In this document: positions 52,003-64,000 of the stretch, one piece after another
Numbering within the stretch: position 1 is the first letter of the stretch
How the letters are laid out: every line of letters begins with the position of its first letter
NCBI GenBank assembly: GCA_963664115.2
Contig: CAXWPJ010000002.1
Coordinates: 640,001-704,000 of the forward strand
Length of the DNA stretch: 64,000 nucleotides
Reading direction: 5' to 3'
Source of the DNA: Terriglobia bacterium
GTDB lineage: Bacteria > Acidobacteriota > Terriglobia > 20CM-2-55-15
Made by a program: the position numbers and the translations under genes
Notes under the pieces: generated by a model
Database searches by the model: none
What the model was told of the DNA's origin: nothing
The model's input: only the letters and a program-made list of their open reading frames with translations

Positions 52003-52323
52003 TCAAACCGGCTGCAAAGCTCCCTTCTTGTCGTGGGGATGCGGGGCTATGCGTGCGGCTTGTTTGCCGACCCGATCCTTGGCCATCTCGAGATCGTAGT
52101 GAGCCTGCAGATTAATCCAGTAGCCGTCGGTAGTGCCGAAATACGCCGACAAGAGCACGGCCATTTCAGGAGACACCGCTCGTTTTTCACGCACAATGTC
52201 GTTCACCCGGGGCCGTGGCACGTCGAGTGATTTGGCGAGCGCGTACGCAGACAGACCCACAGGCTCCATGAATTCCTCACGAAGAATCTTGCCCGGATGA
52301 GCCAGTTTGAGCTTTTTTGCCAT
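52003..52323 (-). CDS. higA: HigA-family antitoxin (HTH)
   Basis: HPGKILREEF, LSAYALAK, YWINLQAHYDL; GGAGG RBS before ATG 52323. Confidence 0.92.
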   Translation of the reverse strand: MAKKLKLAHPGKILREEFMEPVGLSAYALAKSLDVPRPRVNDIVREKRAVSPEMAVLLSAYFGTTDGYWINLQAHYDLEMAKDRVGKQAARIAPHPHDKKGALQPV

Positions 52324-52336
52324 AAATCCTCCCTGG

Positions 52337-52618
52337 TCAATGATAGTCCGCAATCTCGACATCGAAAGCATGGCCACCCTTCCATTTGAAGCAGACGCGC
52401 CATTGCCTGTTGATTCGAATGCTGTATTGGCCCTTGCGTTCACCTTTCAGGGCCTCGAGCTGATTGGAGGCCGAAATCGACAGATCCTTGAGATTGCCTG
52501 ATGCATGTAACTGCTGCATCTTCATCAGCGCCCGTTCCTGAATATCGTTCGGAAGCTTCTTGGAATGCTCGCGATCCCAGAGCCTCCCAGTCTCCTTATT
52601 CCCGAACGATCTGATCAT
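52337..52618 (-). CDS. higB: HigB / RelE-like toxin
   Basis: MIRSF, NQLEALKGERKGQYSIRINRQWRVCF, VEIADYH; toxin-first gene order. Confidence 0.93.
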   Translation of the reverse strand: MIRSFGNKETGRLWDREHSKKLPNDIQERALMKMQQLHASGNLKDLSISASNQLEALKGERKGQYSIRINRQWRVCFKWKGGHAFDVEIADYH

Positions 52619-58326: not shown

Positions 58327-58470
58327 GACCAGATTCCAGCATCGAGGCAAGTATCTATTCTAGGGCCGTTTTAGATGTGATAAGAGTAGCTCGACATCGA
58401 AAAGTCGAGGACCGGACGTGGACGGAAGCGGATGGTTTTATCGAACGTTGAGCGACAGTTGGAGGCAAAC

Positions 58471-59523
58471 ATGAGTCGGACGCGCATCGTAGGGGCGGGG
58501 ATCATCGCACTGTGGGTTGGATTGTCATTTGCGGCAGCTGCCAATGCGCAGACCATATTCACGACCGAGGATTTTCGCCAGGATCGCGAGCACTGGACCG
58601 ATCCCGCCTATTACAGGAACAACACGGCCCGGGAGTTGACGGACATGCAGGTCAACAACCGGTATGGGGAAGAGGGCTCCGGCACAGACAATTTCGAAAT
58701 TAAGAGTCCATATCCCTACCCGACTGCCGAGGAACACTATGCGGCCTGGCTCGAAGCTGCGAACGGTGGAACCAGCCACACGCTTCAAACCTTGCCGGAC
58801 TGGGACGGGCTCTGGGGTGGAGGTGGCAGCTGGCTTGGAAGCCGAAACATACAGGCCAGCACAATTGCTGCTGCCATGACGCCCCTGTATCAAGAGTATT
58901 ACGTCCAGCAGGTCAAAGCCGAGGCTGAAGGCCGTCATTGGTGGGCCGCAGCGTTTTGTCTTCCCGACGGGTTAATCCGTGCCGTACAGCGTGCGCAACA
59001 GTTTATTGTCCGTCCGAACCAGGTCACGTTCATCAGCGACATGCTCACATCTATTGAGGTCCGCTGGATCTATACCGATAGCAGGGGGCATGCACCTGAG
59101 GACTTTCAGTTTCCGCAGTGGCTGGGCGAATCGATCGCGTTTTGGGACGGTGATGCGCTCGTCGTGCACACCAACCAGATCCGGCAGTGGAATGCCACGC
59201 ACTCGATGTTCGAATGGAGCGGCCAACTGACAACGGTCGAACGCTACGAGCGTGTCGACGATTCGCTCATTGGAGAGATTACTCTGTATGATCCGGTGGC
59301 ATTTCTCGAACCGCTGCATGCCGATTTCAGGTACAACCTTCAGACCAACCCTCAAACCCGGCCCGTCTTCAGTACGTGTACCGACACTAACGGACCGGCA
59401 AGCAATATCTATGTGAACGAAGAGGGTATTCTCGATGAGCGTACGCCGGGAACCCCCGGATATTGGGATCCCACCGATCCCCGTCCGTGGGCCGGGCATT
59501 ACGCCATAGGAGAGAACCGATAA
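58471..59523 (+). CDS. Exported hypothetical protein (DUF6152-associated family), paralog 3
   Basis: GGAGG RBS; signal peptide; PDWDGLW, FCLPDG, RWIYTD, GESIAFWDGDALVVHT, VERY, YDP. Confidence 0.75.
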   Translation: MSRTRIVGAGIIALWVGLSFAAAANAQTIFTTEDFRQDREHWTDPAYYRNNTARELTDMQVNNRYGEEGSGTDNFEIKSPYPYPTAEEHYAAWLEAANGGTSHTLQTLPDWDGLWGGGGSWLGSRNIQASTIAAAMTPLYQEYYVQQVKAEAEGRHWWAAAFCLPDGLIRAVQRAQQFIVRPNQVTFISDMLTSIEVRWIYTDSRGHAPEDFQFPQWLGESIAFWDGDALVVHTNQIRQWNATHSMFEWSGQLTTVERYERVDDSLIGEITLYDPVAFLEPLHADFRYNLQTNPQTRPVFSTCTDTNGPASNIYVNEEGILDERTPGTPGYWDPTDPRPWAGHYAIGENR

Positions 59524-59601
59524 GCTGATAGAATTTGTTCAGGAGATCGGACAGGAATCGCGTCAGATCATGACAGGACACGACAAAGAAGAGAGGATGC
59601 C

Positions 59602-59970
59602 ATGAAGAAAACTGTTGTCGTAACTGGGCTGGCTATCGGACTGGCCCTCAGCACAACGACGCCGGTACTGTCCCATCATTCACACGCAATGTTCGACCAC
59701 CTCGTCGAGGTCACGATCACTGGAACCGTAACGTCTTTCTCTTTCCGCAACCCTCACGTCTTTCTGTATGTCGATGCCCAGGGTGAGGCCGGCGAAGTTG
59801 TGAGCTGGGTCATCGAAATGTCCAATATCGGAAACACGATTCGACGGGGCATCGGGGGCTCGACTTTCAAACCGGGTGACATCATCACCGTCACCATGAA
59901 TCCTCTGAAGAACGGCAGGTTTGGCGGCAACTTTACTTCGATAGCAACGGCGGACGGTAAGACTTACTAA
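59602..59970 (+). CDS. DUF6152-like exported small protein
   Basis: Signal peptide ending VLS|HHS, GTVTSF..RNPHV, FKPGDIITV. Confidence 0.78.
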   Translation: MKKTVVVTGLAIGLALSTTTPVLSHHSHAMFDHLVEVTITGTVTSFSFRNPHVFLYVDAQGEAGEVVSWVIEMSNIGNTIRRGIGGSTFKPGDIITVTMNPLKNGRFGGNFTSIATADGKTY

Positions 59971-60149: not shown

Positions 60150-60770
60150 GTGAGAGTCCACTACGGGTTGATTCTGGTTCTTGCAGTCGGCTTGTTGTCG
60201 GTATCGACGAGTGCCGGTCAGGAACTGGAACTGTCCCGCAAGGTGATCGAAATCGAGGGACATCCCACACGGGGACCGGTGGATGCGCCCGTGACGATCG
60301 TCGAATTCGGAGACTTCGAATGTCCTTACTGTGGCGCATTGTTTACGACCCTGCAGGCGGTTCAAAGGAACTACCCGGACCAGGTTCGACTCGTGTTTCG
60401 GCAGTTCCCACTCATTTTTACGCATCAGCACGCGCAGAAGGCAGCCGAAGCGTCCTTGTGCGCCCATGAGCAAAATCAATTTTGGGCGTACCACGACTCT
60501 TTGTTCAGAGGCCAGGATGACATCGCTGTCCCGGCTTTAAAGCAGCGTGCGGTGGATATGGGCCTCGACACGGGCCGGTTCAATGAATGCCTGGATTCGG
60601 GTGTCAAGTGGGTCGATGCCGAGCACGACATCGACGACGGGGTGAACGCCGCGGTGTATAGCACGCCGACAATGTTCATCAACGGTCTGATACTCGAAGG
60701 CAGCCATCCTTACCAAAGCATCATTGAAGTGGTCGAGTCAGAACTGGAACGCATCGCCCTAAGCCGGTAA
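60150..60770 (+). CDS. DsbA-family thioredoxin-fold protein
   Basis: GGAGG RBS; signal peptide; GPVDAPVTIVEFGDFECPYC, FPL..H, STPTMFING. Confidence 0.92.
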   Translation: MRVHYGLILVLAVGLLSVSTSAGQELELSRKVIEIEGHPTRGPVDAPVTIVEFGDFECPYCGALFTTLQAVQRNYPDQVRLVFRQFPLIFTHQHAQKAAEASLCAHEQNQFWAYHDSLFRGQDDIAVPALKQRAVDMGLDTGRFNECLDSGVKWVDAEHDIDDGVNAAVYSTPTMFINGLILEGSHPYQSIIEVVESELERIALSR

Positions 60771-60827
60771 ACTCATGCGATCCAAATTCCAGACCTTATG
60801 ATCCAAAAACTGTAGCTTAGGGGGACC

Positions 60828-61964
60828 ATGAGACACCCAATACTTCTGTCACGCACTGTTGTACTGCTTGCCGGCCTGCTCGTAACCGCTTCCGGCGTCG
60901 CACAGACTCTTGAACCTTCAAAGATCGACGTGTCCGAACTCGGCCCTCAGGTGGGAGAGATCGTCCCGGATTTCAGCTTGATGGACCAGAACGGAGAAAC
61001 CTGGACGCGTGAATCGATCATGGGACCGAACGGTGCGATGCTGGTGTTTGTCCGCTCGGCTGGTTGGTGACCATATTGCCGAACGCAGCTCGTGGAGCTG
61101 CAAAGTCAGGTCGAAGAGCTCGCCGAACGGGGTATCGGGCTGGCCGTGATCAGTTACGATGCGGTCGACGTTCTGACCGCGTTCTCCCAGGATCAGGCAA
61201 TCACCTTCCCGATGCTGTCGGACCTCGGTTCCGAGACGATCCGAAGATTCGGTATTCTCAATTCGGTTCCGGAATGGGCCCTCGGGCCCAACAGCGATGA
61301 TCCTGCCGTAGCTGCCGATGTCGCGACCTACGTATCGGTCGTCAATCCAAGGGAACTTATGATCGGCATCGCGTTTCCGGGCACCTTCATTCTCGATACC
61401 GACGGTCGCGTGTCGTCGCGGTATTTCGAAGATTTCTATATCGAACGGAATACCGTGTCGAGCATTATCATGCGGCTTGGGGGTGGGGAAGCCCCCGTTG
61501 AAGCCACGAAAATATCCACTCCGCAACTCGACATCACGACCTATCCAAGCGACGCGGTTGTGGCACCGGGCAATCGTTTTTCGCTGGCTCTTGACGTCCA
61601 GCCGGGCCCCGGAATGCATGTCTATGCGCCCGGTGCGACCGGCTATCAGGTGATCTCCCTGAAGATCGATCCTCAGCCTTTCGTGAGAATCCGGTCGATG
61701 GAGTACCCCGAATCGGCGAACTATTATTTTGAGCCCCTGGACGAGACGGTGCCGGTCTACGAAGAACCATTCAAGCTGATCCAGGAGATCGTCCTGGAGG
61801 GTTCACCTCGGGCACAGGCGGCGTTTCGTGAACAAGAGTTCCTGACGCTCACAGGCACAATTGAATACCAGGCCTGCGACGCCAGCATCTGCTACATCCC
61901 CAGCTCCGTACCCGTTTCGTGGACCCTGTCGCTCGAGGGTTTGTTGCGTCGACAGCCACGCTAA
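60828..61964 (+). CDS. Probable selenoprotein: AhpC/TSA-type redoxin (UxxC) fused to a DsbD N-terminal-like domain
   Basis: ORFs 60828-61070 and 61092-61964 are in frame; TGA 61068-61070 falls in RSAGW-U-PYC-RTQL; SECIS-like hairpin follows; C-terminal GMHVY and YQACDASICYIP. Confidence 0.85.
61085..61101 (+). other. Bacterial SECIS-like hairpin
   Basis: GCAGCTC-GTG-GAGCTGC, a perfect 7-bp stem whose G-starting loop begins 21 nt after the UGA. Confidence 0.75.
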
Positions 61965-61971
61965 GTGTTTC

Positions 61972-61999
61972 CCTGAGAAGGGGCTCGCCCCTTCTCAGG
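61972..61999 (+). terminator. Strong hairpin after the selenoprotein gene
   Basis: CCTGAGAAGGGG-CTCG-CCCCTTCTCAGG, 12-bp stem; lacks a clear U tract. Confidence 0.55.
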
Positions 62000-62276: not shown

Positions 62277-63299
62277 GTGGCTTGGCCCTCGAATCTCCCG
62301 TTGTTGAACGCCGTACATTGCTTGTGCGCGATTGCCGAGCCCACACGTCTGCGTTTGATCCATCTATTGGCCCAGGGAGAACTGACCGTCAGCGAGATCA
62401 GTCAGATATTGGGTCAGAGTCAGCCTCGTGTCAGTCGGCATCTAAGGCTGCTGTTGGACGGCGGCTTCGTGGCGCGCCTTCCTGAAGGCGCATGGGTATT
62501 CTACCGGCTGGTTGACGCGGGTACCCGGAGCACCGCCGCAGACCTGGCGAACATGCTCGTTGAGAGGCTTGACGCGGGGGATCCCGTTCTTGCCGGTGAT
62601 CTGGAACGATTGACGTCGGTCAAGGCGGAACGGGCGGCAGAAGCGTCCGCCTATTTCGAAGCGCATGCCACCGACTGGGTGAGGGTGCGGGCTCTCTATC
62701 AACCGGTCGCCAAGGTTGAAGCTGCGATGCGTGAGCTTCTCGGACCGCAGTCGGTCGATTTTCTGGTGGATTTCGGTACCGGTACAGGGCGTGTCCTGGA
62801 GGTTCTGGGCGGCCTGTATCGGCGTGCGGTCGGGTTTGATACGAATCACGCCATGCTGAGTATTGCGCGTGTAAATTTGGATCGGGCACAGATTCGTCAT
62901 GCACGCGTGCAACATGGAAATTTCCTGTCCCTGCCGAGATCGTTGGACGAACCTGATGTTGTTGTGATCCATCAGGTCCTGCACTATCTGGACGATCCTG
63001 GGGCGGCTGTTGGGTCGGCTGCACGCCTGCTCGGGCCGAACGGTCGACTTTTGATCGTCGACTTCGCTCCTCATGAGATGGAATTTCTCCGAACGGAACA
63101 TGCGCATCGCCGACTGGGCTATTCTGACGACGAAGTGTTCGAGTGGTGTCGGGGGGCGGGACTCGAAGCCCAGGAGGTCCGTCAGGTCAAGCCACCCCGG
63201 GAACGATCCGGGGAAGTGTCGTCACCCGCCGTATCGCTGTGGCTTGCCTGCCACCCTGCGCATTCGGGCTCCGTCGAAGACCTGGAGATGGCCGGATGA
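62277..63299 (+). CDS. sahR: ArsR-HTH plus SAM-methyltransferase-fold regulator (SahR-like)
   Basis: EPTRLRL, ELTVSE, QSQPRVSRHL; VDFGTGTGR, HQVLHY, LLIVDFAPH; directly upstream of metF. Confidence 0.85.
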   Translation: MAWPSNLPLLNAVHCLCAIAEPTRLRLIHLLAQGELTVSEISQILGQSQPRVSRHLRLLLDGGFVARLPEGAWVFYRLVDAGTRSTAADLANMLVERLDAGDPVLAGDLERLTSVKAERAAEASAYFEAHATDWVRVRALYQPVAKVEAAMRELLGPQSVDFLVDFGTGTGRVLEVLGGLYRRAVGFDTNHAMLSIARVNLDRAQIRHARVQHGNFLSLPRSLDEPDVVVIHQVLHYLDDPGAAVGSAARLLGPNGRLLIVDFAPHEMEFLRTEHAHRRLGYSDDEVFEWCRGAGLEAQEVRQVKPPRERSGEVSSPAVSLWLACHPAHSGSVEDLEMAG

Positions 63300-64000
63300 G
63301 CCGGGTGAAGACTGACACGGTCAAACCACCCCGCGTGTCGTTCGAGTTTTTTCCTCCCCGAACGCCTCAGATGGAGGTAGACCTCTGGCACTCAGTTCAA
63401 CGACTTGAGCCGCTCGAGCCCGCGTTTGTTTCGGTGACCTATGGTGCGGGTGGAAGTACCCGCGAACGCACGCACGCGACCGTCAAGCGAATCGTTAAAG
63501 AAACACCGTTGGACGTTGCCGGACACCTGACGTGTGTCGCCGCTTCACGTGAGGAAGTAAATGCGGTGATTCGGGATTACTGGAACGTGGGAGTGCGGCA
63601 CGTTGTCGCTTTGCGGGGCGATCCGCCGGCAGGGCCGGGCAGCGACTATAAACCCCATCCAGAAGGCTATGCCACGAGCGCCGATCTGGTAGCAGGGGTC
63701 AAACAGTGTGCGCCGTTTGAGGTCAGCGTCGGTTGCTACCCTGAAGTTCATCCCGAGGCCGCGAGCCCGCAGGCCGATCTGGAAATGCTCAAACGCAAGG
63801 TGGACGCCGGCGCGGACCGCGCGATTACGCAGTTCTTTTTCGAGGCGGACGTGTTCTTGCGGTTTTTGGAGAGGGTGCGCGGGGCCGGGATCACGATTCC
63901 GATTGTTCCGGGTATCATGCCGATTCCCAACTTCAAGAACATTCAAAAATTTGCGGCTAAAGTAGGGGCCAACATACCGGTCCGGCTGAGGAAGATCTTA
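63296..64000 (+). CDS. metF: 5,10-methylenetetrahydrofolate reductase (3'-truncated by window edge; absent from the ORF track)
   Basis: Manual translation from ATG 63296: VSFEFFPPRT, FVSVTYGAGGSTRERT, HLTC, ALRGDPP, YPEVHPEA, KVDAGA..AITQFFF. Confidence 0.95.
   Translation, partial: MSRVKTDTVKPPRVSFEFFPPRTPQMEVDLWHSVQRLEPLEPAFVSVTYGAGGSTRERTHATVKRIVKETPLDVAGHLTCVAASREEVNAVIRDYWNVGVRHVVALRGDPPAGPGSDYKPHPEGYATSADLVAGVKQCAPFEVSVGCYPEVHPEAASPQADLEMLKRKVDAGADRAITQFFFEADVFLRFLERVRGAGITIPIVPGIMPIPNFKNIQKFAAKVGANIPVRLRKIL

Follow-up and report, generated by a model that had tools for sequence, protein, structure and literature searches.

The window analysed here (the whole 64,000-nt stretch) carries a single reading frame on the forward strand that extends from ATG 60828 to TAA 61964 and contains one internal TGA (61068-61070), found in the context RSAGW-U-PYCRTQ. 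Read as selenocysteine (Sec), this TGA leads to a 378-aa product of 60828..61964, in which U81, C84, C350 and C355 are the only Cys or Sec residues. The sequence-only reading of this DNA had located a TGA exactly at the first Cys position of a CxxC and had quoted a series of motifs from the readthrough product; UPYC indeed stands at 61068 within AGW-U-PYC-R, and every quoted motif has been recovered in the translation. Ordinary ORF calling splits the gene into two pieces, 60828-61070 (80 aa) and 61092-61964 (290 aa), the second of which has its called start at GTG 61092-61094, i.e., in the loop of the hairpin described below, and we judge this start to be mis-called. A Shine-Dalgarno-like GGGGG (60820..60824, +), putatively functional as judged by sequence, ends 3 nt before the ATG. 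It is followed by a predicted cleavable signal peptide (aa 1 to ~25, 60828..60902), as suggested by the hydrophobic N-terminus and the low pLDDT of aa 1-30, an AhpC/TSA-redoxin domain of the thioredoxin fold (aa 42-196, 60951..61415; PF00578 86.9 bits, PF08534 47.4 bits) with the U81-P-Y-C84 active site (61068..61079) and P184 at the cis-Pro site of thioredoxin-type oxidoreductases (61377..61379), and a DsbD-alpha (nDsbD)-like domain (61497..61934; PF11412 30.8 bits, cut-off 25) with the pair C350-x4-C355 (61875-61892), all on the forward strand. A 12-bp hairpin lacking a U tail (61972..61999, +; z -4.63) is found 3' of the stop codon and may act as a terminator or stabilise the 3' end; the terminator scan does not list it, and the promoter scan has returned no sites. 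In RNA run X17 the gene has been covered in 11 of 30 bins by short, mostly divergent pieces, which therefore give no evidence of expression. Upstream on the same strand lies a DsbA/ScsC-like gene (PF13462) with a CPYC motif (60150..60770), preceded at 58432-59970 by a DUF6152 gene and a gene for a 363-aa secreted protein with no Pfam match. Past an AT-rich intergenic stretch, 62277-64000 presumably encodes an ArsR-methyltransferase regulator followed by metF, and at 52003-52618 (-) the motifs, as in the former case, suggest a HigB/HigA-type toxin-antitoxin pair beside tRNA-like remnants.

The source genome (a Terriglobia-like Acidobacteriota assembly of 4.9 Mb, 97% complete, with Terriglobia MAGs at ~82% identity as closest named relatives) has been searched for the machinery of Sec insertion, as the sequence-only reading had advised, and all four components have been found: selA, selB, a selD that itself contains an in-frame TGA, and a tRNA-Sec with the anticodon tca. 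In a protein search the seven best matches have been ~290-aa pieces with 81-100% identity, followed by full-length relatives with 54-62%. An alignment of 102 proteins, in which the 378-aa protein has been included with U written as C, shows Cys at column 81 in at least 90% and an invariant C84. The DNA matches covering this column (E<1e-20, n=174) comprise 108 TGA and 66 TGY and no other codon, and removal of identical 78-nt contexts has left 155 distinct loci, which divide into 99 TGA (Sec) and 56 Cys, the latter being full-length orthologues; the Cys/TGA pairs that had been anticipated for homologues are thus abundant. TGA has been observed in 68/68 GTDB matches, in 21 of 26 loci from relatives and in 18 of the 79 metagenome loci that a Cys query had retrieved, with TGY in the rest of all sets. 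The carriers belong to Acidobacteriota, to Pseudohongiellaceae and other Gammaproteobacteria, to Gemmatimonadota and to Planctomycetota. Of the 68 carrier handles, two of which are duplicates so that 66 distinct genomes are represented, 61 have selB above its cut-off, as do all 16 carriers rated at least 90% complete. The seven misses include one genome of 68% completeness in which both copies are Cys (G020), the other six having no quality figure shown. For a quickly built tree, eight of the 155 loci have been left out because of a short or over-long downstream frame; the remaining 147 need seven Sec/Cys switches, at least four of them forced by strong branches, the root of the tree not being established. 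The concern that reads might show TGC or TGT has been met by the contigs of two public runs (X2 and X3), which agree with TGA and span it with no differing letter among the differences listed, although either run may equal the source sample.

The hairpin that had been noticed downstream of the UGA, GCAGCTC-GTG-GAGCTGC at 61085-61101 (+), has been confirmed as a bacterial SECIS apical hairpin with a GUG loop (61092-61094) that begins 21 nt past the UGA. According to the text of a recent review (PMC13188914), the bSECIS model asks for a stem of 4-16 bp, a loop of 3-9 nt with an early G, a distance of 16-37 nt from the UGA and an MFE of at most -7.5; with its 7-bp stem, GUG loop, 21-nt distance and -11.6 kcal/mol, the hairpin fits this model. 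A 31-nt segment around it gives z = -2.24, with 5 of 200 shuffles equally good, and in a 58-nt segment another fold wins (z -0.39). Genome-wide, 5,862 of 156,378 TGA trinucleotides (3.75%) satisfy a simplified SECIS rule, and 13 sites remain when UxxC and a frame open for 60 codons in both directions are required as well; since SECIS-like hairpins follow so many genomic TGA, conservation has been taken as the real test. The loop GU is retained in 99/99 Sec genes vs 16/56 Cys genes, the C21-G29 pair is intact in 99/99 vs 19/56, and the mean MFE is -9.9 in Sec genes and -5.8 in Cys genes, the common core being a 6-bp stem that closes a five-base loop. Silent Gln/Leu codon pairs in the Sec genes occur as CAG/CTG (48), CAA/TTG (43), CAG/TTG (4) and CAA/CTG (1), so that the silent positions pair as G-C in 48, A-U in 43 and G-U in 4 of 96 genes with a single mismatch; these counts are of sequences and not of evolutionary events, and by eye the tree shows the pair switching in about five separate places. 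The hairpin is thus retained, with compensatory silent changes, in Sec genes and decays in Cys genes. A lower stem formed by UGAC and GUCA, which had also been suggested, has been rejected: GUCA is present at 61105-61108, but the pairing appears in none of the MFE folds, and its A-U pair is found in just 11 of 99 Sec homologues. With the TGA/Cys column, the conservation of the SECIS and the Sec machinery in its support, the hidden selenoprotein proposed by the sequence-only reading is a well-supported prediction, in which the comparative data carry the case and not the hairpin alone, and the UGA at 61068 is predicted with near certainty to encode Sec.

Regarding the architecture, a redoxin fused to a DsbD-alpha-like domain had been proposed from the letters, and this is supported by PF00578, PF11412, the fold matches and the conserved Cys pair. 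Pfam places AhpC-TSA at 42-196 and DsbD_N at 245-359, both above cut-off, while NCBIfam gives no family at its cut-off for the 378-aa protein. The AlphaFold2 model of the whole protein has a mean pLDDT of 91 and a pTM of 0.84; its Foldseek matches are all Prx/ResA-like among the matches listed (33 of 500), with BCP, AhpE and ResA as fold matches of the redoxin domain. Modelled alone, the alpha domain reaches a pLDDT of 96 and finds its best fold matches in nDsbD (1L6P, 3PFU, 6DPS) and ScsB-alpha (6C29), which hold the top 10 ranks with a modest TM of 0.45-0.56; a profile search of this domain against PDB sequences has given no match at E<=1. Over 145 aa it shares 28% identity with the alpha domain of a full acidobacterial DsbD. 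Both C350 and C355 are kept in 146 of the 147 homologues covering them (92/92 Sec, 54/55 Cys). The transmembrane beta domain (PF02683) has not been found in the 378-aa protein, which is therefore no full DsbD or ScsB. Export, claimed from the start, gains support as a prediction by a hydrophobic leader in 89/95 Sec and 47/55 Cys homologues with a callable start, as scored by an 11-residue Kyte-Doolittle mean of at least 2.0, a measure of hydrophobicity; with its predicted signal peptide the protein is very probably exported. The anatomy is that of a predicted exported two-site disulfide relay, and its role would probably be a reductive one.

In the source genome the selenoprotein is the sole PF11412 (DsbD-alpha) match, and the sole DsbD_TM (PF02683) match is a separate 240-aa CcdA that has no redox neighbour. 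Among 41 related genomes a DsbD_TM gene has been found in all and the fusion in 20, and in 16 of these 20 carriers the membrane proteins are solely CcdA-sized. The surroundings of ccdA or of stand-alone alpha genes have been compared in 20 regions. In five Terriglobia genomes of other families, the genes for CcdA, a TlpA-like redoxin and a separate alpha domain are neighbours in that order and make up a three-piece DsbD (L192, L193, L194, L195, L209; CcdA is fused to TlpA in L193, and lgt lies in between in L195). At the ccdA loci of the window's own family (L201-L206, L210, L211) no adjacent TlpA or alpha gene has been called in 8/8 cases, nor in the source genome; of the eight loci, two end at a contig edge, and in two (L202, L211) ccdA itself has not been tagged by the crude ORF picker. 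A second source of alpha has been observed in 5/20 fusion carriers vs 16/21 non-carriers (p=0.002, by a hand tally in which kin are not independent), but within the window's family this pattern vanishes (4/17 vs 3/8, p=0.64), and both alpha searches have missed known alpha genes. Alpha looks dispensable because five near-complete family genomes (G005, G006, G008, G012, G016; 94-100% complete) have CcdA and no alpha was found in them. Many carriers also possess a full DsbD or ScsB (~600 aa in Vicinamibacterales, ~980 aa in Pseudohongiellaceae), so that replacement alone does not account for the fusion; one genome has both the ccdA-TlpA-alpha operon and the fusion (G031). The ~980-aa DsbD/ScsB-like proteins of two Pseudohongiellaceae loci (L185:1664-4582, L189:1178-4213) have been seen to contain two tandem alpha domains.

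Since CcdA is alone and no other alpha has been found here, and since ccdA-TlpA-alpha operons exist in other Terriglobia, a split DsbD is a likely frame for these genes, and we give about an even chance to the protein being its soluble 'gamma plus alpha' half. CcdA in the membrane would then reduce the U81-C84 site of the Sec domain, which would pass electrons to C350-C355 in the alpha domain of the same chain, and this pair would pass them onward to envelope proteins, for which the genome's DsbA/ScsC-like and ResA/TlpA-like proteins are candidate clients. Since a Se-S bond is more reducing than an S-S bond, the chemistry favours this direction. A pathway from CcdA via a thioredoxin-like protein to a separate alpha has been proposed in the text of Cho et al. 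(2012; PMC3322552), and the 378-aa protein would fit its last two parts in one chain.

In the main rival reading the flow would be reversed, with a separate gamma (a TlpA or that of a full DsbD) reducing alpha, and alpha recycling the fused Sec domain as the terminal reductase of envelope disulfides or sulfenic acids. Separate TlpA/ResA-like genes of the source genome (C9:849461, C10:131851) encode proteins that could act as gamma and feed alpha, two genomes have kept ccdA-TlpA with the fusion at another place (G030, G038), and the Sec domain is a member of the Prx-like 1 group with only weak likeness (domain E 2.5e-8 to 0.02) to the TlpAs of the operons. Because of this distance and of the genomic TlpA/ResA proteins, the direction has to be divided between the two flows: from genomic evidence, that from CcdA via the Sec domain to alpha is evenly balanced in our estimate, and the reverse one is possible, if rather doubtful. 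Against the latter, alpha would have to reduce a selenenylsulfide, which is probably uphill, the family's ccdA has no TlpA neighbour in 9/9 loci seen, and the domain order of the fusion is the same as the TlpA-alpha order of the operon, while in its favour DsbD-alpha and ScsB are described as normally reducing thioredoxin-fold clients including PrxL (PMC3322552). Returning to the flow from CcdA through the Sec domain to alpha, a wider view may be put forward tentatively: the gamma-alpha intermediate missing from the history of DsbD fusions may exist, on selenium, and with a lone CcdA it may replace DsbD in many Terriglobia and provide marine Pseudohongiellaceae and Vicinamibacterales with an additional specificity of alpha.

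A relay dedicated to the adjacent DsbA-like protein, as the sequence-only reading had imagined, is improbable. The two genes lie on the same strand, 57 nt apart, and both products have predicted signal peptides; moreover, the genome's DsbA-VKOR pair is located elsewhere, VKOR adjoining a different DsbA paralogue, so that the neighbour could be a reductive client of alpha. DsbB has not been found in the source genome. However, among the 155 loci (0.1-4 kb of flanks) the DsbA-like gene adjoins the selenoprotein gene in just three genomes, each from the genus of the window, two more genomes of this genus lack it in their 4-kb flanks, and the source genome has five PF13462 matches. As a conserved partner the neighbour has been rejected, the adjacency being genus-local and sequence likeness missing as well. 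A conserved operon has likewise been rejected, as the commonest neighbours are unrelated secreted proteins: an unnamed secreted family, which resembles the 363-aa protein of the window, recurs at 29 other loci, a PQQ propeller and an alginate-export protein at 13 each, and an RraA-like protein at 11.

Still a little less probable is a periplasmic selenoperoxidase with true peroxiredoxin activity and alpha as built-in reductant, even though AhpC/TSA, AhpE and BCP are the best Pfam, PDB-sequence and fold matches and homologues are called 'peroxiredoxin' in databases. The PxxxTxxC motif is missing from SAGWUPYC, in which S77 occupies the Pro site and U81 the Thr site, and P184, presumably in the cis conformation typical of the family, stands where peroxiredoxins have their catalytic Arg and is Pro in 159 of 160 homologues, a correspondence drawn by eye against the genome's own Sec-Prx. 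This true Sec-Prx (C9:594041, +) has TxxU and an Arg at the equivalent site. All Prx equivalogs score far under their cut-offs on the 378-aa protein, and identity as a peroxiredoxin has been rejected on these grounds; the related PrxL is, according to the text of Cho et al. (PMC3322552), devoid of peroxidase activity. A nonsense mutation, an assembly error or two separate genes, to which the 290-aa database entries and four homologues broken in other ways (L061, L097, L149, L152) might point, are refuted by the comparative data, i.e., by TGA/TGY in 174/174 matches, full-length Cys orthologues, SECIS covariation, co-occurrence of selB and contigs identical across the TGA.

Further Sec genes have been noticed alongside. 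Likely selenoproteins of the source genome are an exported single-domain T-U-PFC redoxin with an almost identical hairpin (C9:74840, -), a W-U-PNS redoxin (C12:~242700, +), a W-U-PYC redoxin whose frame seems broken downstream (C2:~298980, -), the TxxU peroxiredoxin at C9:594041 and SelD (C9:453301, +). The genome-wide scan has added two candidates with UxxC, a hairpin and a plausible redox context, TF-U-VVC (C2:360043, +) and KSPS-U-GCC (C5:202820, +). Genomes of the same genus have up to three paralogues (L099, L100, L102, L097, L098), namely the Sec orthologue, a second Sec copy, which in one case contains an internal TAG, and a Cys copy that is shorter. At window positions 61060-61123 the summed contig depth is 800-1200 vs 6-18 downstream, and many other genes from the same metagenomes have a stretch of ~45 nt with UGA and SECIS in common and different flanks, so that an almost identical recoding cassette is in use among distant Prx-like selenoprotein genes.

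The present assignment corrects a systematic mis-annotation across Acidobacteriota, Gammaproteobacteria, Gemmatimonadota and Planctomycetota, in which the closest database proteins are 290-aa N-terminal truncations that miss the signal peptide and the active site. It also makes available a clean SECIS from nature that is doubly constrained by coding and for which the Cys genes serve as controls. Should the split-DsbD interpretation be true, the 2012 proposal of a route from CcdA via a thioredoxin-like protein to alpha becomes testable with two genes, and the Cys orthologues make this feasible without Sec machinery; if the gamma-alpha intermediate is true as well, a selenoprotein would sit at the hub of envelope reduction.

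Compared with known systems, the Sec form and the selenoprotein class are not new. In Dataset S1 of Zhang and Gladyshev (2008; PMC2398784), all 13 RSADWU reads follow the '#Prx-like 1' header and precede that of '#Prx-like 2', of which about 11 belong, by eye, to the same subfamily, and JCVI_READ_1599685 extends through the alpha-domain cysteines; these GOS reads have been filed under 'Prx-like 1'. The fusion had been called unusual, a word that should be softened, as the family is large (2,793 matches among 7,996 candidates scored) and its Sec form is in the 2008 dataset. The present protein shares PF00578 (86.9 bits) and UxxC with the 'Prx-like 1' selenoproteins (PMC2398784; Table 1 of PMC13188914), for which a DsbD-alpha fusion is not described in the text consulted there: the main text of the 2008 paper contains no occurrence of 'DsbD', the legend of its Fig. 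S1 does not have this fusion among its four, the 119-family table of the 2026 review (PMC13188914) lists Prx-like UxxC families and no such architecture, and the available text of PMC12013277 and PMC1794560 does not mention DsbD. No description of a fusion between DsbD-alpha and a Sec redoxin has been found in the open literature searched. The sole DsbD-related selenoprotein in the 2026 catalogue, as tabulated (PMC13188914), differs by a rhodanese domain and a UxxxxU motif, and the 378-aa protein has no match to NF045694. With PrxL, TlpA and ResA it has in common an exported Prx-like or TlpA-like fold with a CxxC-type site, which in these proteins is reportedly reduced by ScsB or CcdA; they are single-domain Cys proteins, unlike the two-domain Sec fusion, and the ResA equivalog scores 37.4 vs a cut-off of 170. 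With DsbD, ScsB and CcdA (PMC3322552) it shares an nDsbD-type alpha domain, in which the Cys pair is conserved, and a redox domain of the thioredoxin fold. DsbD and ScsB, however, have the membrane beta domain in the chain, which the present protein has not, and the gamma of DsbD is of the Thioredoxin_7 type, whereas here an AhpC/TSA-type domain precedes alpha and carries the Sec. In the forms listed in the text of Cho et al. (PMC3322552), separate alpha, CcdA and beta-gamma occur and a gamma-alpha form does not. New, in all likelihood, are therefore the undescribed DsbD-alpha fusion architecture of a known selenoprotein class together with its lone-CcdA context, and the predicted place of this protein in envelope electron transport.
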